A stretch of 64,000 nt of DNA from a virus: positions 1-64,000 of the IMG/VR virus record IMGVR_UViG_3300005758_000132, one strand, 5' to 3'. The notes below the pieces were generated by a model. That model was not told the DNA's origin. It saw nothing but the letters and a program-made list of their open reading frames with translations, and did not search any database. Shown one piece after another: positions 36,026-63,051 of this stretch. A program made the position numbers and the translations under genes. The stretch's first letter is position 1. Every line of letters starts with the position of its first letter.

Positions 36026-37084
36026 TCATTTGTAGGATGCTGCGAGCTTGTTCAAGATGGCGGACATCTCAGTAGGCGTAATGCGCGAACCGTCATCTTT
36101 ACGAATCGCGTCAGCGAATCGCCAGAGGTGCTTGGTGACAGAATCGAGGTTGGCGGGTTGCGCTACCGTCTGTTCCATGCGCATACGAATCGCAGCCTCT
36201 GAAGCTGTCTTGGTAGCGTCTTTAATACCACCCACGGTGTCCGCCACCGCCGCTTTCAACACAGCGCGGTACTTGCCGTAAGTTCCCTCTACGTCCGCGT
36301 TGAAGGCGCGCTTGAGGATGTAAAGCGTAGCCATCTCCGTCGTGGCCTCTTCCAGCAGCGCTCCGGGACCGGAGTACATGCTGAGAATGTTCTCGCCCTC
36401 TTGGCTTTTGCTACATGAGTGAATGACCTCGTGCAGCACGGTGTGAAGGCTTGACGGAACGTTAGCCGCAGAGATGTCTGCGGCACCTGCGGTAGCCGGT
36501 GGCGAGAACTTAGGTTGTGACAACTGACTAGACGATAAGTTTATCCGACCTGAGTTCGGCTCAAACGAGCCATACACGTTTTTCGGTAACTTGATGACAA
36601 CAAGCTCTGTTGTCTGATGAAAGTTCTTCGGATCGCCCGTGTGCCTATTTGGGGTCATGCCGTAGCTGGCCACTAGCGTGTTGACCTCTTTCCGCAACTC
36701 CTGACCTAGCGCGTGCATCTCGTCTGGCGTCGTCTTAGCCTCAGCCATCCTAGACGCCAAATAGCTATACGTCTTTGGTAGGAACGGTCTAGCGTGGCAC
36801 CAGCCGCCATGGGTATGCGTCGCAGGTGCGTAGTTGACAGCCGCAGCCGCGCCGGCTTGCGGAGCGCTTTTAACTGCCTCGTGTACGGTGCCCCACGCTG
36901 ACTTGAGATCGGGATACCAGTACTCCGTTTTAGTGCCCACCTTTCGAAAATACCCGCCGTGCTTTGATCCAGGTACGGGGATGAAGCCTTTTGGCGGCGC
37001 GTTTTTTACGCGCAAATCGACAACAGCCGCTTTCACGATGACGTCTTCAGCCCAAGACTGAAGCTGCTGGTAGGTGGTTTTCAT
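36026..37084 (-). CDS. PPxG..WYP module protein with zincin metallopeptidase
   Basis: AGGAG RBS before ATG 37084; module, then HEVIH...LEEATTE. Confidence 0.75.
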   Translation of the reverse strand: MKTTYQQLQSWAEDVIVKAAVVDLRVKNAPPKGFIPVPGSKHGGYFRKVGTKTEYWYPDLKSAWGTVHEAVKSAPQAGAAAAVNYAPATHTHGGWCHARPFLPKTYSYLASRMAEAKTTPDEMHALGQELRKEVNTLVASYGMTPNRHTGDPKNFHQTTELVVIKLPKNVYGSFEPNSGRINLSSSQLSQPKFSPPATAGAADISAANVPSSLHTVLHEVIHSCSKSQEGENILSMYSGPGALLEEATTEMATLYILKRAFNADVEGTYGKYRAVLKAAVADTVGGIKDATKTASEAAIRMRMEQTVAQPANLDSVTKHLWRFADAIRKDDGSRITPTEMSAILNKLAASYK

Positions 37085-37115
37085 AGGCGAGTCTCCTGGT
37101 ATGGCGAACGCTACT

Positions 37116-37775
37116 TCAGAGCGCGTTCTTTTCCAAAATAGCTGCGGCAATATCCTGCGCCTCTTCACTCACCTGTCGCATAAAATGACGTGCCTTGATA
37201 CCCTTGTGGATCCACGGCTTGCCGTTTTGACTTATCGTGCGCCAGGTCATGTACATCGATCCACCGCCGGGAGTGGCGTTTGGTATGCGCACAAGGCCCG
37301 CTAGCGGGTCCGTGGCGTGGTAGGGATCGAGCTTTGGCGCCATTCCCTCCGGCAGACGATTGCGACTTGTGGGATACGGACCTAACGCGCGAGCAGCCTT
37401 TTCAGCCGCACTGCCTCCGTACTCGCGTATCTTGCGCGTTGTGATGCGGAACGGCACGTAGAGGTACAGGTGACCCTTCTTAGATCGCCTGATGGACTTC
37501 GTGGTCGTGCGGAGAAGCGTGTCCCGCATATCAAACGGTGTGACGCCATACTCGACCATCTGCGCGAGCTTTGGCTCGCTTTTAAGAACGAACGTGAGCG
37601 ACGTAAACGTAGTGCGGAAGTCCATCGCAGCTTGGTAAGCTGGCAGAGAAGACCGAAGCTCCCCTGTCAGCTCAAGCCACCGCTGAATCAAGGCACGCTT
37701 GATGAGGTGATGACGGACGGACAGCATGTCCTGCATCCACCCCTTCAGCTTAGCGAAAAAAGCCTTGTCAGCCAT
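37116..37775 (-). CDS. Neck/head-tail joining protein
   Basis: VEYGVTPFDMR...YMTWRTIS...WIHKGIKARHF, typical of SPO1-like neck genes. Confidence 0.65.
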   Translation of the reverse strand: MADKAFFAKLKGWMQDMLSVRHHLIKRALIQRWLELTGELRSSLPAYQAAMDFRTTFTSLTFVLKSEPKLAQMVEYGVTPFDMRDTLLRTTTKSIRRSKKGHLYLYVPFRITTRKIREYGGSAAEKAARALGPYPTSRNRLPEGMAPKLDPYHATDPLAGLVRIPNATPGGGSMYMTWRTISQNGKPWIHKGIKARHFMRQVSEEAQDIAAAILEKNAL

Positions 37776-37790
37776 AAGCTACCTCCAGCG

Positions 37791-38696
37791 TCACAGCCTT
37801 GGATGATCCCTCTCAAAAATTGCCTTTTCACGTTGTAGTGCTTGGACTAACGCCTTCTCGTCGTTGACGTCTTCTTTGCTACGGCGAAGTCGCGCTAAAG
37901 CCGGCAGCACTATGGGCGTGGGTCGGGCGCTGTCGAGTATTGATCGAATAGACGACGGCGTTCGCTGAACGCGCTTCTTTAGGTTTTTTACGAGCTTTTC
38001 TAGATATGCGACTGTCTGTCCCTTGTCCCGTTCTCTTGTCGCTACCCACATTATATCTTGCTCATTCCAATTCATGTTTTCGCCACCAGTCCAATCCATA
38101 ACCCATAGATTGAACTCTTTGCCTGTTGCTAGGTTATCTTCGGTTGAGTATCCAAGGTAACCCTTTGGCGGAGTTGGTCGCAAGTTTTCTATGGCCGCGT
38201 TGCGGTTTTCTGGGGAAAGTGTAGCTACATATTTTATGTCTTCTATTAGTTTTTCTAAATATCCAATAACTTGATTAGCCGCCGGCGTACCATCCTCTTC
38301 AGACAGCAATGCAAGGTCTAGGACTGTATCCTCGTCATAGTCAAACCTATCGGCGCGTTCGTCATCGTCAATACCTAGCGCGTCTAATATGTGTTCACGA
38401 AACGCGTTACCAGTCATGACATAGTGGTCTACGTCCATCTCCGCCGCGTGTGTGGGAGAGTCTACATCGCTTTCATTAACGTCTGGATGCTCTCGCACGT
38501 CCATCCACGGGCGCGAGTTAGGATACCAAGTCTGATACTTGTTCCCAACGCGCTTGTGAAAGCCGCCTTTCTTGCTTCCTGGGATAGGGGTGAAGCCCTG
38601 AGGAGGCTTGTTGGCTTCTGCCTTTTGAAGGCTGTTGTAGTTTGACTTCTCAATACGATCAGCCCAGAGATTGAGTTCACGAGTATAGTCTTTCAT
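37791..38696 (-). CDS. PPxG..WYP module protein with two NWxExD-type domains
   Basis: MKDYTRELNLWADRIEKS leader plus module. Confidence 0.75.
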   Translation of the reverse strand: MKDYTRELNLWADRIEKSNYNSLQKAEANKPPQGFTPIPGSKKGGFHKRVGNKYQTWYPNSRPWMDVREHPDVNESDVDSPTHAAEMDVDHYVMTGNAFREHILDALGIDDDERADRFDYDEDTVLDLALLSEEDGTPAANQVIGYLEKLIEDIKYVATLSPENRNAAIENLRPTPPKGYLGYSTEDNLATGKEFNLWVMDWTGGENMNWNEQDIMWVATRERDKGQTVAYLEKLVKNLKKRVQRTPSSIRSILDSARPTPIVLPALARLRRSKEDVNDEKALVQALQREKAIFERDHPRL

Positions 38697-38717
38697 AGCA
38701 GTGCTCCGCTCACTTGT

Positions 38718-39542
38718 TCAGTACTTGCCTTTCATGTGCAAAAGAATTCGCGTCCGCGCGCTACTAAGATTCGGCACGTAGTAGTCAACGATGGCAGCGC
38801 CGCCGGTCGAGGTCTTGAACTCGTCTGGCGCGTAGATCAAATACCCGTCTGGCTTGGCAGCAACTGATTGACCGCCGCCGGGCTTCTGCTTATTCGTGGG
38901 TACGATACGGTAGCCGTCTGACGTGGTGTAATATCCAGCCTGTCCCTTGATCTTATCGAGAACGATGTCCTCAGCGCTTTTCGGCGCGTTTTCCAACAGC
39001 TGCTTCGCCTTGTCCGCCTGCTTGTATTTCCAGCTAAGAATTTCCTTGGCGTGGTTAGGCTTAGCCGCCGCTACCGGCGCGTTCGGATAGAGGTGCTCGT
39101 GCAGCGCGTCTACAAGCTCTCCGTGCGAGCTTGCTTCAACTTCTTTGTCGCCTACGCGACCTGCGTGATACTCTACGTCACCTTCCATAACCGAGACGGC
39201 GTCAGCCGTGGTCTTACCGTCAGCCGCCGTGAGGCTGAATCTTGTAGTGGGTAGGTAATCGCCGAGCGTCATTGTTTGTGTAAGACCAGAGCGGACACGC
39301 TCGACGTTATCCATGCGTCCCTGCGACAACCCGTGCCCAGGGTACCAGGTGTGATACGTGTTTCCGACGAGCTTGTGAAAGCCGCCTTTCTTCGACCCCG
39401 GGATAGGCGTAAATCCCTGAGGAGGCTTGTGCAAGTCATCGTGCTGAATGGGTTGCGCTACGTTTGGGTTATAGGTCGGCAAGATGATGGCCTTCTCGAT
39501 ACGATCTGACCAAAGGGCGAGTTCGCGCGTGTAGTCTGTCAT
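38718..39542 (-). CDS. PPxG..WYP module protein, unknown payload
   Basis: AAGGAG RBS before ATG 39542; MTDYTRELALWSDRIEKA leader plus module. Confidence 0.75.
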   Translation of the reverse strand: MTDYTRELALWSDRIEKAIILPTYNPNVAQPIQHDDLHKPPQGFTPIPGSKKGGFHKLVGNTYHTWYPGHGLSQGRMDNVERVRSGLTQTMTLGDYLPTTRFSLTAADGKTTADAVSVMEGDVEYHAGRVGDKEVEASSHGELVDALHEHLYPNAPVAAAKPNHAKEILSWKYKQADKAKQLLENAPKSAEDIVLDKIKGQAGYYTTSDGYRIVPTNKQKPGGGQSVAAKPDGYLIYAPDEFKTSTGGAAIVDYYVPNLSSARTRILLHMKGKY

Positions 39543-39558
39543 AGCAGTGCTCCTTGTT

Positions 39559-39598
39559 CTGTTGACGTTATACATAAAAACGTTTTTTACGTCAACAG
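39559..39598 (-). promoter_or_regulatory. Early-type promoter inside a 10-bp inverted repeat
   Basis: Minus strand TTGACG(39595-39590)-N17-TATAAC(39572-39567); CTGTTGACGT...ACGTCAACAG. Confidence 0.7.
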
Positions 39599-39602
39599 TA
39601 AA

Positions 39603-40463: not shown

Positions 40464-40530
40464 GGCGCAGTCTCCCTCGTATTGGCTAAATTATTCCATC
40501 GCCTCAGTGTTCTTCAGAAGAACGAGTTTG

Positions 40531-42867
40531 TTATCGCGAGGTCCTAACGCGCTCGCTGCGATATTGCGATTTCTCTCTACCCAGTTTGGTAGCTAGCGTT
40601 TTGAAATACTTTAACAAAGTTTGATCGTCGTCGAATTTAGCAGCCTCCACAACAGCCTTTTCGTCCCAGTTGACGTCAACGCCAGTCGCTTCTTTGATAG
40701 CGTCGTTAACGTCAGAAGGTTTCATCTGACGTTTTTTATACACCTCCTTGTGTAGTCCAAGGATGCGATTATGCAAAGAGTTCATTTCTCTCGCATCGTC
40801 TGGGTCTTCGTTTTCGCTCAACCTATTGTATCTATTCTGCAAATAAGCCATCTCCATTTTCTTAGCTACATTTTCAAAGTGATTCAATAAGGCGGTGTCT
40901 GACGAAGACGCCACGGCCCAGACGACGTCTTCTTCCTTCCAGTTCATGTCTTTCCCGGTCCATTCCTTGACGACGTCGTTAATCAAGCTGTCGTTTGTAT
41001 GTAAGTTATCCATAGCTTGTGCGTGGCCTGGATCGTTCTCGTTCTTCCCTTCGTGGCTCTTTACTCCATGTCCGGGATACCAGGTCTGATACTTGTTTCC
41101 AACGCGCTTGTGAAAGCCGCCCTTTTTGCTTCCTGGGATAGGGGTGAATCCTTTAGGAGGCTTGTCTGCCTTATGAAGAGCGTCGTCAGTCTCTGATAGA
41201 AGGTTGTTGTAGTTGGACTTCTCAATACGATCAGCCCAGAGATTGAGTTCACGAGCGTAGTCTTTCACGGTCAATTCTCCTCTTTCTAACGTGTCGTTGT
41301 TTGTAACGCGAGAAGCCCCCTTTTTGACTTCGTCAACTTCTTCATAGGCCCCGCTTTCGAAGAAGTGAGGATAATACTCCTGAGCGTACTCTTCATCAGT
41401 GTCGCCTTCATGTCCGTCATAGCCAGAATCGCTCTCAGATGACGCGAGCTTGAGCGCGTCCTCCAAAAGCTCTCGACCCTTTGCGGTCATATTGCGAAGC
41501 GGATGCAGCGAGCCTTTCTTGCCCTTAAAGAGCGCGTTGATCTCGTTGTCGGTAGCGCCTGACCGCTTCATCCACGTCACGAAAAGCGACGGGTGTACAT
41601 AGGAGCCGCGGCTCATAGTCATACCGTTATCAAGTCTCTCCGCGACTCGCGCAGAAACCATATCGATTACGGCAGACAGCGCTTTTATGTCTTTCTTCGC
41701 GTTACCCGTCAACTTGATTGGAGGCACTTGCGCCAGCTCGTCCGCAGCAGTCATTGAGCCTTGCAGCGTTCGCAAGTCCTTCTGCTTGAACTTACCAAAG
41801 TGCGTCTTCATGACCTTATTGGTGTCCGCGTCAGTTGCCGAGAACAGGAAGCCATCAGGTGTCGGATTTTTCGCGCGGTCGTGTAACTCTTTTACCAGCT
41901 CTGGGTCGGTCACAACACGCGTGTTCTTTTTATTTGCTTTGCCGATAAACTGTATGCGCACCGACGTCGGCGCAGTATCGTTGTCAAAGCTGAGATGTTT
42001 TGGCTTGAGCGTAGTTGCGCCTGTGGTGCCGATTTTCTCTCGTCCAAACTTGTCGACCTTGGTAGCGCGCGCTGCGGCTTCACGACTTCCAGGTCGAAGT
42101 CCAGTCTCTTCGATTAGCGCAAGAGCTACAGCCGCGTCTCGCTCGCGCTGCGATCCGGTAGTCATCGCCTTACGTAGAGAGCGCGTCGCGGCCTCCATTT
42201 GAGGAACGAGGGTGGCCAGACGAGTCCACTTCACGTGTGCAGTGCGACGGTCATGCTCAGTTGTATAGGCGAACTGGCGCACACCATCCTCGTTCGTCCA
42301 GCTTAGCACCGCTCCCTGATGGACAGCGTCAGTGCCAAGCTGACTAGGTGTAAAGTGTTCTTTGAGATTCTTAGCGGTGAGTGGGATAGGACGATTGAGT
42401 TTCATCGCGCTGTATTTTTTTCGAATATCAGCGTGCGGGTCTTCAGGCGCCTCAATCGGATTTCCTTCCTCGTCGAGCTTCGGCTTTTTCGGTTTATCTG
42501 ACGCCTTCTTATCCTTCTCAAAACGCCGAACGTCAGTGTTCTGCATTTGATCGAGAAATTTACGGTGCCGCTCGCCGATCGATTCGTAAGCCTTTTGGTG
42601 CTGCGCGTCGCTTAGCTTCTCTTTCTTGTGCGTACCAACACCGACGCCGGGGTACCAGCTCTGCCAACCGTCAGCAGTCTTCTTATGCCAACCTCCATGC
42701 TTTGTCCCTGGAATAGGTGTGAAGCCTGGCGGCGGGTGCTGCTTACTACCGACGTTGCCGGCAACTCGCGGTTCAAGATCAGCGCTACCTGACTCAGAGT
42801 CTGACGTAGACTCCTTAGCAGTTCTTCGGGCCTTAGAAATATCGCTGTCGTTGTCGTTGTTCAGCAT
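40531..42867 (-). CDS. PPxG..WYP module fused to DNA topoisomerase IB, plus a second module-bearing C-terminal unit
   Basis: TGLRPG, GATTL, FIGK, KDLRT, RLDN, SYVHP give the bacterial/viral topoisomerase IB pentad R-K-R-N-Y. Confidence 0.85.
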   Translation of the reverse strand: MLNNDNDSDISKARRTAKESTSDSESGSADLEPRVAGNVGSKQHPPPGFTPIPGTKHGGWHKKTADGWQSWYPGVGVGTHKKEKLSDAQHQKAYESIGERHRKFLDQMQNTDVRRFEKDKKASDKPKKPKLDEEGNPIEAPEDPHADIRKKYSAMKLNRPIPLTAKNLKEHFTPSQLGTDAVHQGAVLSWTNEDGVRQFAYTTEHDRRTAHVKWTRLATLVPQMEAATRSLRKAMTTGSQRERDAAVALALIEETGLRPGSREAAARATKVDKFGREKIGTTGATTLKPKHLSFDNDTAPTSVRIQFIGKANKKNTRVVTDPELVKELHDRAKNPTPDGFLFSATDADTNKVMKTHFGKFKQKDLRTLQGSMTAADELAQVPPIKLTGNAKKDIKALSAVIDMVSARVAERLDNGMTMSRGSYVHPSLFVTWMKRSGATDNEINALFKGKKGSLHPLRNMTAKGRELLEDALKLASSESDSGYDGHEGDTDEEYAQEYYPHFFESGAYEEVDEVKKGASRVTNNDTLERGELTVKDYARELNLWADRIEKSNYNNLLSETDDALHKADKPPKGFTPIPGSKKGGFHKRVGNKYQTWYPGHGVKSHEGKNENDPGHAQAMDNLHTNDSLINDVVKEWTGKDMNWKEEDVVWAVASSSDTALLNHFENVAKKMEMAYLQNRYNRLSENEDPDDAREMNSLHNRILGLHKEVYKKRQMKPSDVNDAIKEATGVDVNWDEKAVVEAAKFDDDQTLLKYFKTLATKLGREKSQYRSERVRTSR

Positions 42868-42960
42868 TGCAGATCCTTGAACGCGCGTTGTGACGATAAG
42901 GCGCTATCTACGACAGGTCGGTTTCATGTCCGCGCTGCCGTAGATAGCTTTTGACGTAAA

Positions 42961-45638: not shown

Positions 45639-45660
45639 AGAGCGCCTCCACCAGCTAAGC

Positions 45661-46518: not shown

Positions 46519-46541
46519 GTGTTTGTCCTCCTTATCGTATT

Positions 46542-47132: not shown

Positions 47133-47168
47133 GATTTTGTCCTTTTCTAATTAGAGTCGTCGGACAGC

Positions 47169-47200
47169 AAAAAGCCAGCGGGCATTTCTGCGCGCTGGCT
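47169..47200 (-). terminator. Intrinsic terminator after the major capsid gene
   Basis: AGCCAGCG/CGCTGGCT stem followed by a T tract on the minus strand. Confidence 0.75.
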
Positions 47201-47236
47201 CTTCGCTCACGAAGCGCTGAACCGCAGCGCTACGGA

Positions 47237-48727
47237 TTAGGCGGCCTTGGTGGCGCAGTTATCGATGATGGCCCACTTCTGCGGCTGCTTAAAGAAGAGC
47301 GCGCCCATCATGTAAATCATGAACGGGATGCTCGCAGAGGTCTGGCCGAGCGGACGGCGGATGGCCTCCATGAGCTGCGAGAAGTAGAGCACCTCAGACG
47401 AGAACTCGCCGATGTAAATCGGCTTGCGGAACGGACGGCGATGGTTGAGGTCGGTCCACGAGGTGTTCGAGACACCGGCGGTGCCGCGAGCAAACTGACC
47501 GATGTAGTCGAACTCGGTGCCGTCCTTCTCAGTACGGTAGACGCGCCAGTAACGGAGCATACCGCTCGTGTTCTTGGTGCCGGAGATGGCTGAGTCATTG
47601 AACACGAAGGTCGGCGCGTCGCCAGCCGCGGTGATGACAACGCCGTTGACGCTGATAGCGCCAGCGGTACCGCGATCACCGACCGCCACGAAGCGGTAGT
47701 CATACTCGCCGACATCGCCAGCGCGGAAGCGGCTGCCAGTAACAGTCGAGTTGACGGTGGGGGTGCCGGACACTGCGCCCACGTTGGGAGCGCCGCCGCC
47801 AACGGAGGTCGTCGGGAAGTTCGACGGCATCGAGATGAGCGGCATGGTGTACACCGGCGCGTCGCCGTACTCGGTGGTGAGCGCAAGCTCCTGCGGGCCG
47901 CCGATGTAGGACTTGACAGCTGCGCCGCCACGATCCTTGGGATAACGGCCAGCAGCGGCGTCGAGCGTCGTGAGGACGCGCTTGACGCGCGAGTCAGTGA
48001 ACGCCTCAAGGTCGAGGGCGAAGCGTCCGTCAGACTGAAGCTCGCCGACAACGTCCTCGATATCCTCAGAGGTAGGAGCCTCGCCTTCAAGGTCGACAAC
48101 GAGACCGCCGCCACCCATGATGGACGAGCGGAAGCCGTTGAACTGGAGCGCCGAAACGCTCGCGTCACCCTCGATAAGCCAGCGCTCGATACGACCGAGG
48201 AGCTGCTTGACGCCGAGCTTGGTGCGGGTTTCAAGGAGCGAAGCGCCGCCGTCGAGACCGCCGGAGAGCACGGCCGCGGTGTCGGGGACTTCGATATTCT
48301 CCGACATGAACTTGAGCTGCACAACGATGCGCTCGAACTCAGCCTCGGAGAAACCATTGATGCCACCTTCCGCGAAGAAGGGGTCAATCGCGTCGCTGCC
48401 CTTGGCCTTCACAAGGGTAGCCTCGTGAATAAGCGACTTGGCAACCGAGACCTTCTCAAGACGGCGCCAGAGCCAGAGGTGACGCTCGCGGAAGCCAACG
48501 TCATTCAGCGTGCCCTGAATGGACTGAGTCTGAAGGGGTCCCATCGAGGCAGTGCCACCGGCGCCGCCAACGTACGAGGGGTCAGGCGGGTAAGCCGCAG
48601 TCTCCGCCTTGTGGAGCGCGTCACGCTCGTACTCGGAGATCATATTGGCAACGCGGCTAAGCATTCCGTCGTTAACACCGGCTCCGGGATTAAATCCGCC
48701 AGCCGTCATCGAGATATTGATACCCAT
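47237..48727 (-). CDS. Major capsid protein (SPO1/Twort-like)
   Basis: LHKA propeptide site, LQTQSIQGTL, IERWLIEGDASV..LQFNG, PQKWAIIDN; strongest codon bias; AAGGAG RBS. Confidence 0.88.
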   Translation of the reverse strand: MGINISMTAGGFNPGAGVNDGMLSRVANMISEYERDALHKAETAAYPPDPSYVGGAGGTASMGPLQTQSIQGTLNDVGFRERHLWLWRRLEKVSVAKSLIHEATLVKAKGSDAIDPFFAEGGINGFSEAEFERIVVQLKFMSENIEVPDTAAVLSGGLDGGASLLETRTKLGVKQLLGRIERWLIEGDASVSALQFNGFRSSIMGGGGLVVDLEGEAPTSEDIEDVVGELQSDGRFALDLEAFTDSRVKRVLTTLDAAAGRYPKDRGGAAVKSYIGGPQELALTTEYGDAPVYTMPLISMPSNFPTTSVGGGAPNVGAVSGTPTVNSTVTGSRFRAGDVGEYDYRFVAVGDRGTAGAISVNGVVITAAGDAPTFVFNDSAISGTKNTSGMLRYWRVYRTEKDGTEFDYIGQFARGTAGVSNTSWTDLNHRRPFRKPIYIGEFSSEVLYFSQLMEAIRRPLGQTSASIPFMIYMMGALFFKQPQKWAIIDNCATKAA

Positions 48728-48768
48728 GTTAATCACTCCTTGGAAATAACCTCACCAGCTGGCAGAGG

Positions 48769-49479
48769 TCAGACAGTCACGTTGATGTCAAAGCGCTTGA
48801 GAATTTCTTCGACCGGAAGCGCAGAGTTTTCCAGCGTCGAAACAGCTTCGCCGATACGGACGATGACGTCCTCGCTGCCGCCGCCCTTCATCAGGCGGCT
48901 CTGCTCAGCGACGAGCGCCTTCTGAAGCGCGCTACGATTAACGGTCGGGGCCTGCGCAGCCGCGGCGGACTTGACGAGACTCTGCTCAGCCAGATCGTTC
49001 GGATGCGGCTTAGCAGCCGAAACAGAGCCGCGCGGAGCGCCGGTCGTAACGAGCTTGGCGTCAAGCGACTTCTTGATCTCATCGATCGAGTTGCTCAGCG
49101 AAGCAACATAATCAACGAGCTGCTCGACGAGCTTACCTTGCGCGAGCGAGCCCTTAACGAGCGCCGGCATGGTCTCATTGGTAAAGGAAACAAGCGACTC
49201 GACATTGAGCGCGGTGCCGCGAAGCATATCGCTCGTGTCTTCCGCCAGCGCGGGGCCACCCTTATGGATAGCCAGGCTGGTGTTGACGTCAATAACCTCG
49301 ACGTCAGCAGCCAGGCGCAGGTCGCTTACGGCGTTGACAAGGTCATCGATGGAGAGGCTGACAAGCCCTTCCTCAGCCACATTACCAGCGGCGACTTCAG
49401 ACTTGACGAGGCGATCGACGGTCGCGGCGTCGAGCCCACTTGCCTTAAGCTGCGCACGCAGCGTCTTCTCGGTCATCAT
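48769..49479 (-). CDS. Scaffold protein
   Basis: Helical protein between protease and capsid genes, with many hydrophobic-x-K[SAG] sites. Confidence 0.7.
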   Translation of the reverse strand: MMTEKTLRAQLKASGLDAATVDRLVKSEVAAGNVAEEGLVSLSIDDLVNAVSDLRLAADVEVIDVNTSLAIHKGGPALAEDTSDMLRGTALNVESLVSFTNETMPALVKGSLAQGKLVEQLVDYVASLSNSIDEIKKSLDAKLVTTGAPRGSVSAAKPHPNDLAEQSLVKSAAAAQAPTVNRSALQKALVAEQSRLMKGGGSEDVIVRIGEAVSTLENSALPVEEILKRFDINVTV

Positions 49480-49503
49480 AGTTAGTTCTCCTAGCTAGTT
49501 GGC

Positions 49504-50307
49504 TCAGCCCGCCACAACGCGGGTCATAATCTGAGAGAGGCACTGCTTCCAGGCAGCGCTACCCTTCAGAGCAGCAGCGACCGCCAGGTCAAGCTCGTTA
49601 AGGTTAAGCCTAACAGCGAGTGCCGTGAGGCGCTGGAGCGGATCAACTTCCACTCCGTTGGCGGTTGCATAATGGGCGGCGTCCGGAAGGAGGGCCGATA
49701 GCCCGTCATCCAGCACCTCAGATTCATTCATGGCTTTACGAAGCATGGCTCGTCCTTCTGGGGTTGCGCGTAAAGACGCGAGGATCGGATCGAACCAAGC
49801 GTCGCGGTTTCTAGGTGCGCCTGTGATAACGACATTGGCGCAGTACCAGCGCTTTACGTCGCGGCGGTCATTCTTGTCACGCTCTTGTGCAGCGCCCTCG
49901 ACAGAATATCCAAGCCTGACGCGGTTAGACGCGCGGTTAATCCTCAGGATCTTTTCCCAGAGCTGCTTGGCAACCGGCTCGTCGTTAATCCAAAGACGGG
50001 TGGTGAGGTAATAGCAGGGAACACCGTCACGGGTCTCGCCCCGCTCAAGGTCCACCGGCTCGCCCACCGGATTAAAGACGCCCGCCGGATGCTCCATAGT
50101 GACGGCGCCAGAGTCGGCAGCAGTCATTTCACCTTTGGCCAGCGAACCCAAAAACGGCGAAAAATCCGCGCCGTCAACGCGTAAAATCTCGCCCTGCATG
50201 TCACGTCGCTCTGACGTACAAATGCCGCGGATGAGCCCCTGCTCGCCGCCCTTGGTGATAGGCTCGATTCCTGGTGTCCAAGTCGAGATTCTTTCGCGCG
50301 CGTTCAT
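49504..50307 (-). CDS. Prohead protease
   Basis: IRGICTSERRDMQGE, TMEH, LGYSVEG, VVITGAPRN. Confidence 0.88.
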   Translation of the reverse strand: MNARERISTWTPGIEPITKGGEQGLIRGICTSERRDMQGEILRVDGADFSPFLGSLAKGEMTAADSGAVTMEHPAGVFNPVGEPVDLERGETRDGVPCYYLTTRLWINDEPVAKQLWEKILRINRASNRVRLGYSVEGAAQERDKNDRRDVKRWYCANVVITGAPRNRDAWFDPILASLRATPEGRAMLRKAMNESEVLDDGLSALLPDAAHYATANGVEVDPLQRLTALAVRLNLNELDLAVAAALKGSAAWKQCLSQIMTRVVAG

Positions 50308-50353
50308 GCTGTCACCGTTGTACTTATTTAGCGACAAAGTCAAGTTGCTCTAA

Positions 50354-51136
50354 CTAGACTAGGTTCCAGTTACTGTCGAACGACTTGCCGGGTGGAATTG
50401 GTACGACCACGCATCTGCAATTAGGGTGCAGCGGAGGTCTAGGCACTGCACCGGACATCAAGTCCTTGACGTCAAATACCTTGGGCGAGCCGCTTTTGTC
50501 CAAAAACGCGCCCTTACATTTTGGGCACGCGTCTTTCTGCGGAACCACCGCGGCCTTCTTGGTTTTGCCTGCTTGTATGGTGGACACGATAACGCCGTCA
50601 TTGAACGCGGCTTGAAGCTCAGTCGTGACGATGCGCTTTACGTCTTTTTCCGTACCGTCAAACACAGGCGTCAGGCGCTCGATAGCCTTTTCAATCAGCT
50701 TATCGCGCGGCAGACCTAGCGATATCGTGTCCGCCAGCACGGAACGGAGCTTGGCGCGCACTGCGTCTTCGATTCCAGTAATCCGCAGCCCCGCACGCTC
50801 GCGCACATATTTCCATGCCTCTAGTTCTGGGGGCTTGAGCCAGTTCGGAAAGGCTTTGGTGGCTGTTGCACCTTTCGACTCCCCGCCAGGTCTGTACGCT
50901 TTTTCAATGGGGGCGCGGTCCTGAATCCAGCGCTTTATGAACTGCACCCACTTTGAGAGCTTCCACGTCCGCGACTTGTTTATGTCAGTATCCGCGAACG
51001 CTAGACCCATTATGAGGCTCAGCTCGATCGGCGATACGTCCCAGTCTTCCAGACCGATAATTACGCCGTCGAGATATGCGCGCCGGAACTCGTCGCTGAC
51101 ACGCGCGGCCTCTTTATCTGGGTCGAATAGCAACAC
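50354..51136 (-). CDS. Head morphogenesis protein, Mu gpF/SPP1 gp7 family
   Basis: RIVTTELQAAFN, ACPKC, PPLHPNCRC. Confidence 0.88.
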   Translation of the reverse strand: MLLFDPDKEAARVSDEFRRAYLDGVIIGLEDWDVSPIELSLIMGLAFADTDINKSRTWKLSKWVQFIKRWIQDRAPIEKAYRPGGESKGATATKAFPNWLKPPELEAWKYVRERAGLRITGIEDAVRAKLRSVLADTISLGLPRDKLIEKAIERLTPVFDGTEKDVKRIVTTELQAAFNDGVIVSTIQAGKTKKAAVVPQKDACPKCKGAFLDKSGSPKVFDVKDLMSGAVPRPPLHPNCRCVVVPIPPGKSFDSNWNLV

Positions 51137-51138
51137 GC

Positions 51139-51660
51139 TCAGTACGCTCGCATCTTCTTGCCCTTCATGACGTGATCGTGCATCGAGTCCATCGCGGCGC
51201 CGATCGTCCCATGAGCCTCAGGCATGAGCTCCTTACCACCTACAGAAGGCGTGTGCACCCATCCGCCACCCTTAGCGGCCTTCGAGAGCATCTCTGTCCG
51301 CAGGTTGCTAAAATTACGCATCGCCACGCTGCCGTTGGCAGGCTCAACCACACCGGAGAAACGGCTCCAGCGCTCGTTCGGCACCTGGTTGTTATCAGAC
51401 GTGAGCGTGTAGAAATCCTTGTATCGGCTGAGCTCGTTGATGCCGAAATCGGGGTACCACGTAAGGTAGGACTCGCTATTGAGGTCACCCTTGTAGCAAC
51501 CGCCCTTCATGCTGCCCTCAAGCGGCTCGAAGCCTTCAGGAGGCATCTTGCTCTTATCAGCGGGCTCAAGGTCCTGAGTCTGCAACGCTTGCAGCGTATT
51601 GGGCTCGAATCCGTTAACCCCGCCCCAACCCATACTAATCGCGTTCATGTTTGTGTTCAT
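51139..51660 (-). CDS. PPxG..WYP module protein (divergent module)
   Basis: PPEGFEPLEGSMKGGCYK...YLTWYPD; ATG 51660 after AAGGGG. Confidence 0.65.
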   Translation of the reverse strand: MNTNMNAISMGWGGVNGFEPNTLQALQTQDLEPADKSKMPPEGFEPLEGSMKGGCYKGDLNSESYLTWYPDFGINELSRYKDFYTLTSDNNQVPNERWSRFSGVVEPANGSVAMRNFSNLRTEMLSKAAKGGGWVHTPSVGGKELMPEAHGTIGAAMDSMHDHVMKGKKMRAY

Positions 51661-51892
51661 CGGACATCCCCTTTTCAAGGTCTCGCCGCAGTGCGTCGAG
51701 CCGTTTCTTAAACCCTTCCTCCAGCGAAGCGCGGATCTCTTCAATCGCGTGCACTTCGCCGTCGCGCGCGGACTTACCCTTGAACAGAGCGTCAGCGGCG
51801 TCAACGAAGCCTTTGTAAATTCGCGCGGCCAGCTCTGTATGAGTCATCGCGTCGAGCTCGCCCGGCGCGTCTTCTTGGATGGTTATCTTCAT
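51635..51892 (-). CDS. Hypothetical head-region protein
   Basis: Coupled ORF with IYKG/LFKG/LEKG sites. Confidence 0.55.
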   Translation of the reverse strand: MKITIQEDAPGELDAMTHTELAARIYKGFVDAADALFKGKSARDGEVHAIEEIRASLEEGFKKRLDALRRDLEKGMSDEHKHERD

Positions 51893-52110
51893 CCGCCGAT
51901 CACTGCTGCGTAGCAGTACTCAGGCGCGCCACGAAGGCGCCACGCGTTGTACTGCTTGCCCTCGAACTCGATGACAGTAGGCTCACCCATACTACGCGCG
52001 TCACGCACGTAGAGGCGGTCTTCGCCTACCACAAACGGAAGGACGTGCCACTCTCCCGCCTCGTCCTTCACTAACGCGAACACGCGCTCGTCATCTTCAG
52101 CAATAGCCAT
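51889..52110 (-). CDS. Hypothetical protein
   Basis: GGAGG RBS; coupled to the next gene. Confidence 0.55.
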   Translation of the reverse strand: MAIAEDDERVFALVKDEAGEWHVLPFVVGEDRLYVRDARSMGEPTVIEFEGKQYNAWRLRGAPEYCYAAVIGG

Positions 52111-52128
52111 AACACGCCTCCCCAGTCG

Positions 52129-56706
<4,578 letters not shown>

Positions 56707-56721
56707 AGTACACCTCGCGTG

Positions 56722-58656
56722 TTAGACGCGCACCTGAACAACGATTGGCTCACGCTGTGAGCCGCGTGAAACGATAGACCAAGGCTTGCCCGGACGCCAC
56801 GTTGGTGGAGGCTTTACTAGGCCTCGCCTGACGGCTTCTGCCACGGGACCTGCAAGGCTCTTGGTGATCTGGTTTATCGAGCCGCCGTGCTTTGGGTCTC
56901 GATACAGCGACGCCATAAGCGAGGCGTCATCGAAATCCTCGAACGGAGCCTCAGGCTCTTCTTCCTCACCGGGCGGCATCTCTCCACCCATGCCCATATC
57001 CATACCGCCACCCTCGCCACCTTGCTGCTGGTTCATGGCGTCCATGGACTGCGCTTGCGAGATGTACGGGTTGGCGATGACGTCGCCGGCGGACCCTGGA
57101 ATAGGCTTGAGGTCGTAGCGAGCGCGGATCTCGTTCACTGACATGAACGACTCTAGCATCTTCTTGTCGATATCGAGCTTCTCGCCCTCAGTCAGCGAGT
57201 CAAAGCCGGTGAACTCGAACACGAAGGTCTCACCGTCCTTGAAGCGCGGCAGGAACTTGGAGTTGATCCAGCTCTCAATCGACCGCAGGCGCGGGCGCAA
57301 GCCACGCGCGCGGCTCATCTCATATCGCTCCGCCGGTCCGCTGCTGTTGAGCGCGGATTGGCCTTCGTTGCCGAACTGCATGTTGAGCGCAGCAACCGGG
57401 TCGACGCCATACGCAGCGCACACCAGCTTGACGTTGTAGAAAAGCCAGTTGGTGAACTCCATCTCCTTGTTGGAGTTGGAGAGGTTGACAGACTTGATGT
57501 CTTCCTTCTGCGACGGGTCGAGCTGGATGATCGGCATCCGGCGCTTAGCCGCTGCCTGCGAAAAGTTAGCGTCGAAGGTGCGGCGCATCGCAGAGAAAGC
57601 GGTGCGGTCCATCGTCGACATGATCGCGAGCAAGGACGAGGAGTGAATGCCGGAGGTGAAGTTGACCGCGTTGTAGTTTTCCGCGCGACCGAAATTGACT
57701 AGCACGTTCCAGAGCATGTGAAGCTCAGGGAATCCGTAGTCGACAAAGCGCATCCCGACACGCGGGTTGCGGATGCCGTAAATCATCTCCGGCTCGTCCC
57801 ACTCTGCCACCACGCGATTCAGAACCCACTGGACGTAGCCAGACTCGCCCCACTGCCCGCGGTCATAGTACTGCTGCGAAGGCTCGCGACGACGCACAGA
57901 CTGCGCATCGTACACGAACATTCCCATGGGCTCAGTGTTGCGGAAGCCAGAGGCCTCTAGGATCTCGATAGGCGCAGCGTCGTAAACAAGCGACTCGCGC
58001 ATGAAACGCCGAACCGTGCCTTCAAAACCTCCTGACTGATACTTACCGCCGCCACGCTCAATTACGCGCTCGATTTCGGTCATCCGCAGCTTCTCAGCCT
58101 TAGTCGGATGCCGGCTTGTGTCAGCGAGCCTCAGTCGAAAGCCAAACGTATGCGCGACCGTCTGGCGCTTGGCAAACTCGCACACCTCTGCGACAGCGTG
58201 ATTGATGACCAGTGCAGGCACTGACATCGACGCCAGCTTCTCTAACATCCACCACGGCATCCCGTCAGTGCCTGGATGCGTAGGATTGAGATTCGCGTCT
58301 GAAGTGATGCGACCTATCGCGTCAACGGGATCGAACGCGTAACCAGCGGGTCCCGGCTCCTCTTTCTTAGCCGCCTTGAAGAGCGCATCAACCGGGTCCG
58401 GTACGTCAAACGCCGGCGATGACGCCGTTGGCATAACAACCGCGCCCATATCGGGCGCACCACCGCCGAGGAACGCTCCTGGTCCTGACTTGACGATAAC
58501 CTCGTCAGGCGCGGTCTGCTCCGCGGCCGGTGTCTGCGCCGTGTCCTGAGGAGGTCTAGCAGCGTCAACAAACGCCTCAGAGGCGCGGCGGGCTAACGAC
58601 CCTGCCGCTCCCCCTAGAGACGCTGCTAAGCTGTTCAAACGGTCCATAATCGACAT
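56722..58656 (-). CDS. Portal protein
   Basis: RNPR..YGFPEL, KEMEFTNW..LVCAAYGVDP, GLRPRL..IN, MSVNEIRARYDLKPI. Confidence 0.92.
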   Translation of the reverse strand: MSIMDRLNSLAASLGGAAGSLARRASEAFVDAARPPQDTAQTPAAEQTAPDEVIVKSGPGAFLGGGAPDMGAVVMPTASSPAFDVPDPVDALFKAAKKEEPGPAGYAFDPVDAIGRITSDANLNPTHPGTDGMPWWMLEKLASMSVPALVINHAVAEVCEFAKRQTVAHTFGFRLRLADTSRHPTKAEKLRMTEIERVIERGGGKYQSGGFEGTVRRFMRESLVYDAAPIEILEASGFRNTEPMGMFVYDAQSVRRREPSQQYYDRGQWGESGYVQWVLNRVVAEWDEPEMIYGIRNPRVGMRFVDYGFPELHMLWNVLVNFGRAENYNAVNFTSGIHSSSLLAIMSTMDRTAFSAMRRTFDANFSQAAAKRRMPIIQLDPSQKEDIKSVNLSNSNKEMEFTNWLFYNVKLVCAAYGVDPVAALNMQFGNEGQSALNSSGPAERYEMSRARGLRPRLRSIESWINSKFLPRFKDGETFVFEFTGFDSLTEGEKLDIDKKMLESFMSVNEIRARYDLKPIPGSAGDVIANPYISQAQSMDAMNQQQGGEGGGMDMGMGGEMPPGEEEEPEAPFEDFDDASLMASLYRDPKHGGSINQITKSLAGPVAEAVRRGLVKPPPTWRPGKPWSIVSRGSQREPIVVQVRV

Positions 58657-58683
58657 TTGGTATCCCCCAGTCAGCCCGCAGCG

Positions 58684-61600
58684 TTATCGTCGACGCGTTA
58701 CCTTGGAACGCACGATGCTACCGGACTTCCAGAACATGGAAACGCCCCGCTCGTCTACCTTTACCCAGGTATTTTCTTCGCCTAGAACCGGCGCGAAACC
58801 TACAGGCGGCTTAGCCATACGAGTGTCCGCCATCAACTTGAGCAAGTCGGGGTACTTGCCGCCGATGAGCATATGGCGCGCGAGCTTGGCCTCAGAGGTG
58901 CCGTTGTACTCTTCGATGAAGCGCTTGAAGGACGCGCGCAAAGCCTCAGTGTCAATCGCGCGCTTAGGCTCGCCGTGCGTCACGTAAGGCAGCACAACGC
59001 CACCGCCAGGGGCCTCTAGCGCGAGCATCATAGCGTTGCTAGCATCCGCCTGTGACCGCCAAGTGCTGCCCTTGCTGACGGGCTCAGATGCCAAATCAGA
59101 GTAGTCTCCGTCCACAGCGCGTTCCCCAAGCGCTGCGCGAATCTCTCTTTCGTACATAAAGTCGTAGTACCAAAGCTCCGCCTGATTCTCGTAAGAAATC
59201 TGCTCGTACTGCATACCGACAGCCTTCTTCAGTTTTAGAAGCGCTGTCTCCGTCTCGTCTAGCTCGCGTAGAAACACAAAATGTTTATTTATTCCGCCTA
59301 GTTTCGACGTTACCTTGGAGTCGTTCTTTAGCTCAGGATGGTTCTTAGGGTCACCTCGATATACCTCTTCAACCGCATACGATCCGCTCAGGATCGTCTC
59401 ATACTCGCCTGTGTGAACGCTCAACTTGTCTACCCGTAAGCCTCTAGTAGCGTTCCTGACAATATACAGCGTTGAGGCGTCACCAGTGCCGCCAAACTGT
59501 GTTAAAACTTCAGTTGATGAACTAGAGCCATCGTTCATCGTAACAACTAGCCCAGCGTGCAACGCTTTGACTGAAAACTCGTTTGTCCTCATGTTGCGGT
59601 AAAGTTTTTTAGGTACAGGCACCGCTGCGGGTCGTCTGTTACCTAAAATCTGAAGAACGGCGTTATTGCGATGAACTGAGTCATCCGGAAAGTTAGGTTT
59701 GATGTCGATGATGTATGGCTTGAAATTATTAGCTGCGGCAGTAGTCCCATCCTTCGTTATCTGTCTTTGCGCGTTATAGACATCGCGCACAGCTTGCTCT
59801 GATATGTTAGGCGCAAGTCCTTGCGATTTATGATCTTTGAGCAAGCCGACGTAGTTATAAGCGTCAAAATAGTTATTTCCATTGGCGTGCAGCCAAATGT
59901 GCGCACGAGCCAACTCTTCCTTGTATTCCATGGTGAACGTCTTCGGATCGCCAAAGTCAGTCGCCAAGTACTTAGCGCCGTCCTTGCCGGTAGCGAATGT
60001 AGCGCCTCCGAGTCCGTTGTCTCCGAGTGCGCTAGACAGCGCTGCGGCGTCCGCCTTTAGCTCGTCCAATAGCGCATTGTTTTTGGCGATGGACACGTTC
60101 CACTTTCCAGCAGTGGGCGACTTCGCCTGTACAGGCGAACTAGGTGCTACCGCTACCGGCTTTCCATAGGACGTACCGTATTGCTGTGTATATGTTTTCT
60201 TCAGCTCATCGATAGTCTTCTGCATCGCTTCACTGTTGATAATTTGTGACGAGGCAGCGTGAAACTCAGCTATTTTAATCGCGTCCTTTTTCAACTCTTC
60301 CGCACACTTGGTGTAAGCGCTAATCAGACGCTTGTTTGTTAGGCTACCCTTATGCTGAGACCAATCTGAGCTGTCAGGCACATAGAACTCGTCGGAAGGT
60401 GGGAGCGCGTCCCAAGCCTTTCCTGCTTCACCTTTAGGCCGCTGAGATTTCAACTTTTTCACTGCGTCCTCTAGCTTCGCAGAGGCATTGTTTCGATCAG
60501 CGGCCGTGGCCAAGAAGTCTATCTTGCTTGAGTATGGCAACTTTCTAGGACGAAATGCTTTCACATAGCTATCATTGGCAACATATTTGGAAGCGCCGGG
60601 GTAGCTTGCCAAGAGCTGCTGAACCGCGTGCATAGCTGCTGATTTAGACTCTGTCTTTTGCTTCTTGGTAGCACCCCATGAAGTCGTTACTTCTACTGTC
60701 TCGTAATTGAGCACGTCTAAGTTCGTTGGCGTTACTTCAGAGTCTTGAATTAGACTAAAGTCCTTATTGTCAAGCGCGTCAATGACGGCATTCCAGTCGC
60801 TCTTATTGGAATCCGTCATGTTGATATTCCATGGATACTTGAGACTACCTGACAAATTTTTGTCCTTGGCTATGTTTACTATAACGTCTCCTAAAGAGTA
60901 CAGTTTTGGAGAGCCGGGCGCAGTAACCGATAAGTTGGTAACGTCTTTGAACGCGCTACCAACTGCGTGATTAGTTTGAGTGATACCAGTAGGCCCGGAA
61001 TACGCCGCGCCTGAACTTGAGCTTGAAGCTATAGAACCTGGTACTTCAAAAAGCTCATGCACGTTAATGGTGGTCTCAGCTTTCGCAGTGAAGCAGTCAG
61101 TGATTAACGCCTTTCCTATAGGCGACTCGTAAAAATTGCTCTCGTATTGGTAGCCGGTAGCCCAGGTGTCGTCAGTAGCCGGCGATTGCTTGAAAGCTGC
61201 TTTAACATACGCAGCACGCTTTTTCAGGAACTCGTCGTAGGAGCTAGCGTGCTTCTCGTATTTTTTGACGAGCATATCAACCATTGTGCTTAGAGCTTCC
61301 GCGGCTTTAATCGTTGCGGCGGCTGCAATAACGGCTTGCTGCTCCGCGGTCAGCTCTATCGGTTTAGCTGCGATCTCTTCTTCGATCTTAGCCGCTTCGA
61401 CGATGACCTTGGCGGGCGTTGCGTCTGGAATGATGTCCTTGACAGACTCAGCAGCCTTCGAAGAAACGTCCTTCGCCTTATCGCCCAGAGCCTTCAAGTT
61501 CTTGATCTTGGCGACTGCGGACTGGAGGTCTGTCTTAGCAAACACCGCTGTGGGCTCGCTTACAGCCTCGTGTCCCTGGTCGAAGATAACATTCTCAGCG

Positions 61601-62253
61601 TGCCATGCGCCTGACGCGTCCTCGTCAAGCTCGTGTGCTTCGCCGGAGTAGAGCGCTTCTTGATTCGGTTCAATCTTCCAACGCGACATGAGCGCTTGCA
61701 GGATCTCCTGCGGCACGTTGCTCGCGCTGTCGATGCTACCGTCAGCCTTGACGCGCATAAGCGAGTAGGTACCCGACACGTCACCGGGCATGACCTTGAA
61801 CTTGGCCTGATGGTCAAGAGACGCGAACACCTTGTTGAACACGGAGTCTTCAAGCGCTGGGTCCGTTGGGTCCCAGTTATCTGCCTTGACCTTGACGATT
61901 TCGTACTGGTTGCCGTCAGCGTCGCCAAGCACAGCGATATTCGAGGTTTTACCGTGTATCGATTGCTCTAGGTTAACAATAATCTCGTGCCAAAGCGCCG
62001 CTTTATTACCGAAAAACTCTTTTAGCGCGTCATAGCTGGCACCTTTCACGTTATAACCAAGCTCGGTCAACAGCTTTCGCGCGTGTAACTCTAAGTACGA
62101 CGTGCCGTGCTTCTCTAAAGACTCAGTTACCTTTTTCTGAAAGTCAGGATCAGGATACCAGTACAGGGTTTTCTTGCCCGTCTTCTTAAACCAGCCGTGC
62201 GAACGACTGCCTGGGATGGGCATGTATCCTGGAGGGGGCTTCTGAGGTTGCAT
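58684..62253 (-). CDS. 1189-aa PPxG..WYP module protein with ADP-ribosyltransferase domain
   Basis: N-terminal module; LYR, SSS, EYE (R-S-ExE ART) near 59300..59620. Confidence 0.75.
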   Translation of the reverse strand: MQPQKPPPGYMPIPGSRSHGWFKKTGKKTLYWYPDPDFQKKVTESLEKHGTSYLELHARKLLTELGYNVKGASYDALKEFFGNKAALWHEIIVNLEQSIHGKTSNIAVLGDADGNQYEIVKVKADNWDPTDPALEDSVFNKVFASLDHQAKFKVMPGDVSGTYSLMRVKADGSIDSASNVPQEILQALMSRWKIEPNQEALYSGEAHELDEDASGAWHAENVIFDQGHEAVSEPTAVFAKTDLQSAVAKIKNLKALGDKAKDVSSKAAESVKDIIPDATPAKVIVEAAKIEEEIAAKPIELTAEQQAVIAAAATIKAAEALSTMVDMLVKKYEKHASSYDEFLKKRAAYVKAAFKQSPATDDTWATGYQYESNFYESPIGKALITDCFTAKAETTINVHELFEVPGSIASSSSSGAAYSGPTGITQTNHAVGSAFKDVTNLSVTAPGSPKLYSLGDVIVNIAKDKNLSGSLKYPWNINMTDSNKSDWNAVIDALDNKDFSLIQDSEVTPTNLDVLNYETVEVTTSWGATKKQKTESKSAAMHAVQQLLASYPGASKYVANDSYVKAFRPRKLPYSSKIDFLATAADRNNASAKLEDAVKKLKSQRPKGEAGKAWDALPPSDEFYVPDSSDWSQHKGSLTNKRLISAYTKCAEELKKDAIKIAEFHAASSQIINSEAMQKTIDELKKTYTQQYGTSYGKPVAVAPSSPVQAKSPTAGKWNVSIAKNNALLDELKADAAALSSALGDNGLGGATFATGKDGAKYLATDFGDPKTFTMEYKEELARAHIWLHANGNNYFDAYNYVGLLKDHKSQGLAPNISEQAVRDVYNAQRQITKDGTTAAANNFKPYIIDIKPNFPDDSVHRNNAVLQILGNRRPAAVPVPKKLYRNMRTNEFSVKALHAGLVVTMNDGSSSSTEVLTQFGGTGDASTLYIVRNATRGLRVDKLSVHTGEYETILSGSYAVEEVYRGDPKNHPELKNDSKVTSKLGGINKHFVFLRELDETETALLKLKKAVGMQYEQISYENQAELWYYDFMYEREIRAALGERAVDGDYSDLASEPVSKGSTWRSQADASNAMMLALEAPGGGVVLPYVTHGEPKRAIDTEALRASFKRFIEEYNGTSEAKLARHMLIGGKYPDLLKLMADTRMAKPPVGFAPVLGEENTWVKVDERGVSMFWKSGSIVRSKVTRRR

Positions 62254-63034: not shown

Positions 63035-63051
63035 ACTAATTCTCCTGATAA

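Follow-up and report, generated by a model that had tools for sequence, protein, structure and literature searches.

IMG/VR record IMGVR_UViG_3300005758_000132 describes a virus of 109,013 bp that is rated complete by CheckV. The first 64 kb of this record (the window: 64,000 nucleotides, GC content 55%) contain seven open reading frames (ORFs) on the minus strand, between 36.0 and 62.3 kb, that carry nine copies of a protein module. This module spans about 30 residues and has the consensus PPxG[FY]xP[IV]PGSKxGG[FYW]xK...WYP. A six-frame motif search combined with ORF mapping bore out the original prediction of nine copies in seven ORFs, with coordinates that agree within a few bases. A profile (A1) built from these copies recovered each of them from the whole 109,013-bp genome with 66–81 bits (E 2e-19 to 8e-24) and no further copy at E ≤ 1. 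The module is therefore confined to the head and neck block at 36–62 kb, and the earlier claim that tail and early genes are free of it stands. The copies and their leaders are as follows (core coordinates run from PP to WYP; a slash marks a predicted cut):

36911..36997, minus strand: module copy 1 (72 bits), in ORF 36026-37168 with a probable start at 37084 (MKTTYQQ...) and an HEVIH motif at residue 246
37031-37084, minus strand: leader of copy 1, ending in VIVK/A
38520..38606, minus strand: module copy 2 (80 bits), in the 301-residue ORF 37791-38696
38646-38696, minus strand: predicted leader helix of copy 2, MKDYTRELNLWADRIEK/S
39339..39425, minus strand: module copy 3 (78 bits), in ORF 38718-39575 with a probable start at 39542 and the leader MTDYTRELALWSDRIEK/A; the database gene call has 274 residues (P0026)
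42649..42735, minus strand: module copy 4 (69 bits), near the N-terminus (residue 45) of the topoisomerase IB (TopoIB) protein 40531-42867
41074..41160, minus strand: module copy 5 (81 bits), internal to the same 778-residue TopoIB ORF (residue 570)
41218-41268, minus strand: second leader of this ORF, before copy 5; IEK/S and LHK/A sites also precede the copy
51451..51543, minus strand: module copy 6 (67 bits), the most divergent, with a 2-residue insertion, in ORF 51139-51804 (database gene call of 173 residues, start MNTNMNAI, P0046)
56533..56619, minus strand: module copy 7 (75 bits), at residue 30 of the 1525-residue protein 52129-56706
56635-56706, minus strand: leader of copy 7, ending in IAK/G
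56179..56265, minus strand: module copy 8 (69 bits), at residue 148 of the 1525-residue protein, with VSK/A, VIK/S and ILK/S upstream
62152..62238, minus strand: module copy 9 (69 bits), from residue 6 of the 1189-residue protein 58684-62253, with no leader and no cut site
58730..58815, minus strand: degenerate fragment (KPPVGFAPVLG only) at the C-terminus of the 1189-residue protein (10 bits, profile positions 3-14)

The last entry had been predicted as a degenerate tenth copy at about 58.73–58.81 kb. It is indeed a remnant of the module, but it comprises just 12 residues, scores 10 bits, has lost the hairpin half and does not appear at E ≤ 1.

Outside a recently duplicated trio (38.5, 39.3 and 41.1 kb), identical codons encode the conserved residues in just 19–53% of cases. 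This mostly different codon usage shows that the similarity between copies has been kept at the level of the protein and is not merely the result of recent duplication. The module is under protein-level selection. Within the trio, the cores of copies 5 and 2 share 97% of their amino acids and 91% of their nucleotides, which points to a recent duplication of the cassette. The duplicated unit comprises leader and module (41074-41268 versus 38520-38696 and 39339-39542), and the copy inside the TopoIB ORF begins at an in-frame GTG (41268). Given this start codon and the recent duplication, the 778-residue ORF may have arisen recently when two cargo genes fused, or it may express a nested product as well.

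The original prediction had also named the payloads of these carriers and called them unrelated. Two of the names withstood scrutiny. The TopoIB protein matches Topoisom_I in Pfam (residues 212–418, E 9e-17), and the 1525-residue protein ends in a nucleotidyltransferase (NTase) head domain (residues ~1277–1416, PolyA_pol in Pfam, 1.4e-10) with poly(A) polymerase and CCA enzymes as its matches in the PDB. The proposed zincin comes down to one HEVIH motif and a sub-threshold DUF885 match, and searches of Pfam, PHROGs, NCBIfam and PDB sequences recovered neither the pseudokinase nor the ADP-ribosyltransferase (ART) in the window. In several carriers no enzyme domain can be recognised, and the 1189- and 380-residue window proteins had no match among PDB sequences. 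The payloads are not all unrelated to each other, as three pairs of carriers share 26–32% identity over 120–200 residues downstream of the module. Other similarity among the seven carriers, as read from the alignment coordinates of an all-versus-all BLAST, is limited to leader and module.

A module family beside the head genes of uncultured phages

We searched 1.84 billion representative proteins with the profile and retrieved 290 clusters (at 50% identity) with E ≤ 1e-3, including 73 with E ≤ 1e-10. Some of these relatives contain several copies and reach 3,298 residues. All 10 of the 10 relatives that were looked up are metagenomic or derive from metagenome-assembled genomes. One relative is part of a metagenome-assembled genome of Planctomycetota. 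Pfam domains in 100 scanned relatives include SNF2/helicase with N6 methylase, C5 methylase, ddrB-ParB, InPase, ART-PolyVal, LPD1, Zeta toxin, RelA_SpoT, SAM lyase and TopoIB. No match was found by tblastn among 50,697 cultured phage records with a 41-residue module, a 105-residue single-module or a 639-residue triple-module query, nor among 72,556 plasmid records with the 105-residue module protein. GTDB genomes gave one weak 17-residue match on a Clostridium contig (L016), which is probably spurious.

The module itself matches nothing in Pfam (including E ≤ 10), in NCBIfam or in a PDB profile search, and no PHROG covers it. As far as curated Pfam, NCBIfam, PHROGs and the PDB are concerned, the earlier statement that it is not a named family is thus correct. 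A PDB row for mS33 (13 residues, E 0.7) was read as a chance match. Structure searches with models of leader plus module and of the module alone returned only rows with Z ≤ 2.8 or E > 5, for the most part single helices or unrelated sheets, and the ESM Atlas contained no usable feature match. The LPD models in Pfam likewise gave no match up to E ≤ 10. Pfam has entries for only part of the 40 LPDs (LPD1–40), and the module may be one of those that never entered it. Measured against the Pfam LPD models, it is a previously unannotated family.

The genes around the window copies identify the block as a head module. On the minus strand, a TerL fragment is followed by a ParB-like protein, the 1189-residue protein, the portal, the 1525-residue protein and a 173/221-residue protein. 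The order continues with a MuF-like protein, the head maturation protease, an acidic scaffold-like protein and the major capsid protein (MCP). After the MCP, neck and head-completion genes are mixed with the 778-residue TopoIB protein and three proteins of 270–380 residues, and then tail sheath and baseplate genes follow. This order, including tail sheath and baseplate, makes the phage a myovirus, and an uncultured one. The main head genes are:

56722..58656, minus strand: portal protein (Phage_portal 1.1e-13, phrog_12 5e-29), with module genes on either side
50354..51136, minus strand: stand-alone MuF-like minor head protein (phrog_115 2e-13; Phage_Mu_F 1.5e-4, under the Pfam cut-off)
49504..50343, minus strand: head maturation protease, candidate enzyme for hydrophobic-x-K/[ASG] cuts (phrog_1028 5e-13), with homologues in 6 related loci
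48769..49479, minus strand: acidic scaffold-like protein (putative function; isoelectric point (pI) 4.8, 236 residues) between protease and MCP, with a homologue in one related locus (L022)
47237..48736, minus strand: MCP (phrog_752 9e-32), with LHK/A at residues 41-44

The protease found no match in Pfam or in a PDB sequence search. Portal and MCP are only 24–30% identical to their counterparts in SPO1-like and Thermus phages, and a DNA-level search for a cultured relative returned no match. The clade is one of uncultured myoviruses whose head module is SPO1-like.

The same setting recurs in 25 IMG/VR loci that we collected by scans with degenerate patterns and that include several identical or near-identical contigs (L012/L023, L014/L015 and L029/L030/L032). 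In 20 of the 25, module genes lie within a 6–20-kb locus together with a homologue of the window portal (E 1e-23 to 1e-110), and most of these loci also encode MuF. The longer ones retain the order of the window: portal, MuF, protease, (scaffold), MCP and neck. Five whole viral records contain 1 to 7 modules each, the nine of the window being the highest number seen. In these records 14 of 17 modules fall into one region per record; two exceptions occur in G004, possibly because this linear record is circularly permuted, and a third in G005. The profile search proposed with the original prediction thus returned what was expected of it, namely restriction to head modules (20 of 25 loci with a portal homologue) and diverse payloads (290 clusters, with a polyvalent repertoire in the 100 proteins scanned).

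These observations bear on the alternative that the carriers are nothing more than structural or internal proteins of the head, in which the module recurs as a structural element and addresses nothing. All copies do lie within the structural gene block, and the carriers that show no enzyme domain would fit. In contrast, the extreme and enzyme-rich diversity of payloads and the variation from 1 to 9 copies per genome are unlike conserved structural parts, and we regard this explanation as very improbable indeed.

The related phages span GC contents from 52 to 70%. Their portal, MuF, protease and MCP are 23–58% identical to those of the window, mostly 25–35%, compared with 48–79% for the best pair of modules, a value biased upward by the choice among many pairs of copies. 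Fusion to MuF is not the rule: the Phage_Mu_F domain was found by Pfam in 0 of 100 module proteins (73 + 27), MuF being a separate neighbouring gene. A weak exception is L019, where a MuF-like ORF contains a 19-bit module.

Some further genes of the window are worth recording. A module-less protein of 580 residues (42961-44703, phrog_7595) contains nine lysine sites of the kind described below. Homologues are fused to, or adjoin, module proteins beside the portal in five loci (L010, L014, L017, L018 and L023; E 1e-10 to 1e-22), and the protein is a payload or structural domain conserved within the module system. At the right end of the window, a 273-residue ORF (63052-63873) matches TerL profiles in its C-terminal part only (phrog_38 positions 545–709). 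In L010 the TerL ORF (413-3493) has 1027 residues, and its middle also matches a ribonucleotide-reductase-like PHROG. Together, these two cases suggest that TerL genes of the clade are split or contain an intein- or intron-like insertion. Between TerL and the first module protein lies a protein with a ParB N-terminal domain (62333-63085, Pfam 2e-6), which may be compared with the ddrB-ParB domains that are frequent payloads in module-bearing relatives. In the tail region, a 797-residue protein (17936-20329) with an amidase/endolysin-like segment (phrog_1493, residues 559–648) is probably a virion-associated peptidoglycan hydrolase.

Leaders, lysine sites and the predicted fold

An amphipathic leader with a hydrophobic-x-K-[ASG] site at its end stands before five of the nine copies in the window. 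One such leader reads M-K-D-Y-T-R-E-L-N-L-W-A-D-R-I-E-K/S, and others end in V-I-V-K/A or I-A-K/G. For the family as a whole, we looked for such a K-site, [LIVMFAC]xK[ASG], within 14 residues upstream of the module. Such sites precede 111 of 194 module instances (57%), as compared with 10.6% at random positions, and the gap from the lysine to the first proline of the module is most often 3–5 residues. A further 17 of the 194 instances start within 14 residues of Met1. The first module begins within 60 residues in 77 of 148 proteins, and in 54 of the 59 proteins with a leader of 15–60 residues a K-site lies inside that leader. By these counts, a module usually lies near the N-terminus that is predicted for the mature unit. 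They also extend to the family what had been noticed for the window copies, most of which follow a hydrophobic-x-K[ASG] site.

K-sites are not restricted to module proteins. Their density peaks at 7 sites in the 236 residues of the acidic scaffold-like protein, and in a five-sequence alignment the LHK/A of the MCP coincides with F/I/L-x-K-[AG] in four homologues at about residue 43. This distribution is the pattern expected of a maturation-protease site, and the chains are presumably cleaved at K-sites by the prohead protease.

In one reading the module serves in processing, as a docking element on the P' side that offers the K-site to the maturation protease. The spacing between scissile bond and module is tight, mostly 2–6 residues with a mode of 3, and the module co-occurs with homologues of one protease family. 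Yet MCP and scaffold-like protein have the same K-sites with no module, and approximately 9% of modules start so close to Met1 (within 14 residues) that there is mostly nothing to cut. These two facts render a function in cleavage only unlikely, and we rate it as such with little hesitation.

Models of the module were calculated with AlphaFold2 (AF2) from alignments of 46–51 rows. In these models the leader is a helix (residues 4–28 in the 301-residue protein), and the module consists of a Pro-rich arm and a β-hairpin with a predicted local distance difference test score (pLDDT) of about 80. In the model of the 301-residue ORF, a small sheet follows the leader helix, and the pLDDT of the module is about 82. 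The module core has a mean net charge of +3.9, compared with +0.44 per 29 residues in the carrier proteins, and contains fewer than one acidic residue. We thus predict a folded, basic mini-domain in which a short N-terminal Pro-rich arm packs on a β-hairpin.

The spacing of the conserved aromatics and prolines (P-x-G-aromatic, an aromatic pair and W-x-x-P) bears what we take to be a resemblance, and no more than that, to the WW domain. The WW domain is a three-stranded antiparallel sheet of about 35 residues; the AF2 model of the module shows one β-bridge pair plus the hairpin (pLDDT 80). No WW match emerged from Pfam (E ≤ 10), a PDB profile search, Foldseek or VIA-align (best Z 2.4, unrelated chains). 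Downstream of WYP, many relatives carry the sequence G-[HQ]-G-[VI]-[TS] and a His-rich stretch (PHPxE, A..HH..EA.KH). The nine window copies do not conserve this stretch, which could be a metal site or a further conserved element.

A second motif, Q[LMIFV][GSDN][LMFI]F(G), occurs 31 times in 24 of 150 relatives (QLGLFG, QLSLFG or QMSLFG; carriers include P0013, P0020, P0035, P0040, P0052, P0062, P0064, P0066 and P0109). In 16 of the 31 cases it lies within 60 residues upstream of a module, as compared with 7.5% expected. It usually stands directly after a hydrophobic-x-K/A[ET] sequence (L-L-K-A-E), 5–40 residues before the module. We take this motif to resemble the consensus of the pentapeptide that binds the bacterial sliding clamp (β-clamp). 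It was not found in the window phage.

This motif raises the question as to whether the module acts after ejection by bringing all delivered enzymes to one host structure that is conserved, for instance DNA, the replisome or the sliding clamp. The mature N-terminus of the relatives concerned would consist of the clamp-like motif, a linker and the module, and the high conservation of the module across phages of 52 to 70% GC fits an invariant target. On the other hand, the window phage dispenses with any QLGLFG-type motif, and Zeta toxin, RelA/SpoT, InPase and SAM lyase have no obvious need to be localised to DNA. We consider a role of this kind quite unlikely.

A possible handle for capsid-carried enzymes

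The original prediction was that the module is a portable tag for packaging and co-ejection. A shared address element for cargo is plausible in view of the head context and the diverse payloads, but its anatomy is unlike that of a T4-type targeting signal: the module sits downstream of the predicted cut and would remain on the mature protein. The separate leader helix is the better analogue of the T4 capsid-targeting sequence (CTS).

We surmise that the module is probably a common handle for capsid-carried enzymes. More specifically, and only tentatively, we favour the idea that it is a retained cargo handle of virion-associated effectors, with packaged DNA as the leading candidate for its partner, and that loading is left to the leader. 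The full cassette would consist of an optional amphipathic leader helix, a hydrophobic-x-K/[A/G/S] site, a spacer of 2–6 residues, and the module with its payload. Where present, the leader would bring the precursor into the prohead in the manner of the T4 CTS and would then be cut off. The module would stay behind at the new N-terminus and so mark the start of each mature unit. From this position it would bind an invariant, polyanionic partner, with packaged DNA foremost. Such a partner appears most likely because the module is basic and its conservation far exceeds that of the head proteins. A handle bound to DNA would keep each released enzyme with the genome and would let it exit the capsid together with the DNA.

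Several points weigh against this proposal. DNA binding is deduced from charge and conservation, and a mini-fold rich in Gly, Pro and aromatic residues would be expected to be conserved for structural reasons anyway. The 48–79% identity between modules is in addition inflated by picking the best among many copies. The fold is small and found no structural relative. As many as 43% of module instances have no K-site within 14 residues, and the specificity of the protease for this site is itself presumed. If the LIK/S at residue 1219 of the 1525-residue protein were used, the NTase behind it would be freed with no module attached. Finally, no cultured member of the clade was found among the 50,697 phage records, and packaging is a suggestion drawn from sequence.

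The strongest competitor is that the module itself is the prohead-loading tag, which would bind scaffold, capsid interior, portal or MuF during assembly. Leaderless carriers exist, namely the 1189-residue protein of the window and 15 of 148 relatives with a module within 8 residues of Met1, and something other than a leader must load these proteins. Module genes sit with portal and MuF. Polyvalent proteins and toxins usually have MuF as their packaging adaptor, and its absence from the scanned module proteins suggests an alternative one. Moreover, the basic module is opposite in charge to the acidic scaffold-like protein (pI 4.8). Set against this, the known loading signals (T4 CTS and the first 30 residues of P1 DarB) are short and poorly conserved and, in T4, removed, and the module is retained. 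It is also conserved well beyond the head proteins that it would need as partners, and the internal copies in polyproteins would be superfluous for loading. On balance, we find this assignment doubtful.

A bolder version of the retained handle would make the module self-sufficient and transferable. Placed 2–6 residues from the mature N-terminus, it would be enough for DNA retention and co-ejection of any protein, and in some lineages it would be paired with a clamp-binding motif. We hold this to be rather unlikely. If true, it would add a second, retained class of capsid-cargo signal, distinct from both the cleaved CTS and MuF fusion, and in some lineages the clamp-binding motif would pass the cargo on to the host replisome.

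The admission of enzymes to capsids and their release are understood for T4 CTS peptides, one P1 signal and MuF fusions only. At the same time, effectors delivered by phages (anti-restriction enzymes, ARTs and toxins) are a growing theme. A recognisable cargo module would allow virion-delivered effectors to be predicted from the sequences of uncultured phages. It would also set a clade-wide grammar of processing (leader, Lys cut, module, payload) that is testable with recombinant proheads, and, if sufficient alone, it would provide a compact tag for loading proteins into phage particles.

Comparison with known capsid-cargo systems

The ejection proteins of phiKZ-like phages such as SPN3US provide one precedent, in that many head-packaged proteins lose propeptides to the prohead protease at a short motif (PMC7411985, PMC10052503). 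In contrast to the K-site, this motif is A/S/G-x-E, and no folded module has been reported that is common to the mature N-termini (PMC7411985, PMC10052503).

In T4, the CTS is a propeptide of 10–19 residues that directs proteins to the core and that gp21 cleaves off; internal proteins of the phage are basic (PMC9026906). Its cargo (IPI-III and Alt) resembles the module proteins in that an N-terminal signal is attached to unrelated proteins encoded with the head genes. The likeness extends to the hydrophobic-x-charged cut site for a head protease, to basic cargo and to payloads that are swappable between relatives. The window leader helix (M-K-D-Y-T-R-E-L...I-E-K/S) has the position and the character of a CTS, and its cleavage would complete the parallel. 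The module, in contrast, is not a short N-terminal propeptide of the kind that a prohead protease removes. The conserved element is a predicted folded module of 30 residues that lies downstream of the cut and recurs inside polyproteins. The predicted cut falls after Lys and not after Glu, and there is no sequence similarity.

The genes for polyvalent proteins of phages lie among those of the virion, and injection of these proteins has been predicted (Iyer, Burroughs, Anand, de Souza and Aravind 2017, PMC5512222). Module-bearing relatives share their domain repertoire: the SNF2-methylase dyad, ddrB-ParB, InPase, ART-PolyVal, LPD1, RelA/SpoT and Zeta toxin. Both groups are located among virion genes, as the order of the window and the portal homologues in 20 of 25 loci show for the module proteins, and both are predicted to be processed into units. 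Several disparate biochemical activities per polypeptide are found in module-bearing relatives; in the window, this holds only for the TopoIB protein with its second cassette unit and for the 1525-residue NTase protein. The two groups differ in that the earlier study stresses MuF fusion as the link to the virion and zincin peptidases as the processors (PMC5512222), whereas the module proteins show 0 of 100 MuF fusions and a shared mini-module after a Lys cut site. In its main text, that study names neither WYP nor any small domain or linker module.

Phage P1 offers a third parallel, since the 30 N-terminal residues of DarB are enough for targeting to the capsid (PMC9024508). As proposed here, a large cargo of antirestriction type is sent into the capsid by an N-terminal element, and the leader, but not the module, is an analogue of the DarB signal as well as of the CTS (PMC9024508). 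Unlike the module, the P1 signal is defined on DarB only and is not described as a domain common to cargo proteins; there is no sequence relation, and P1 loading is hierarchical via DarA and Hdf. DarA and Hdf themselves touch the capsid as well as the DNA and exit together with the latter, and in this respect they may be likened to the DNA handle that we propose for the module.

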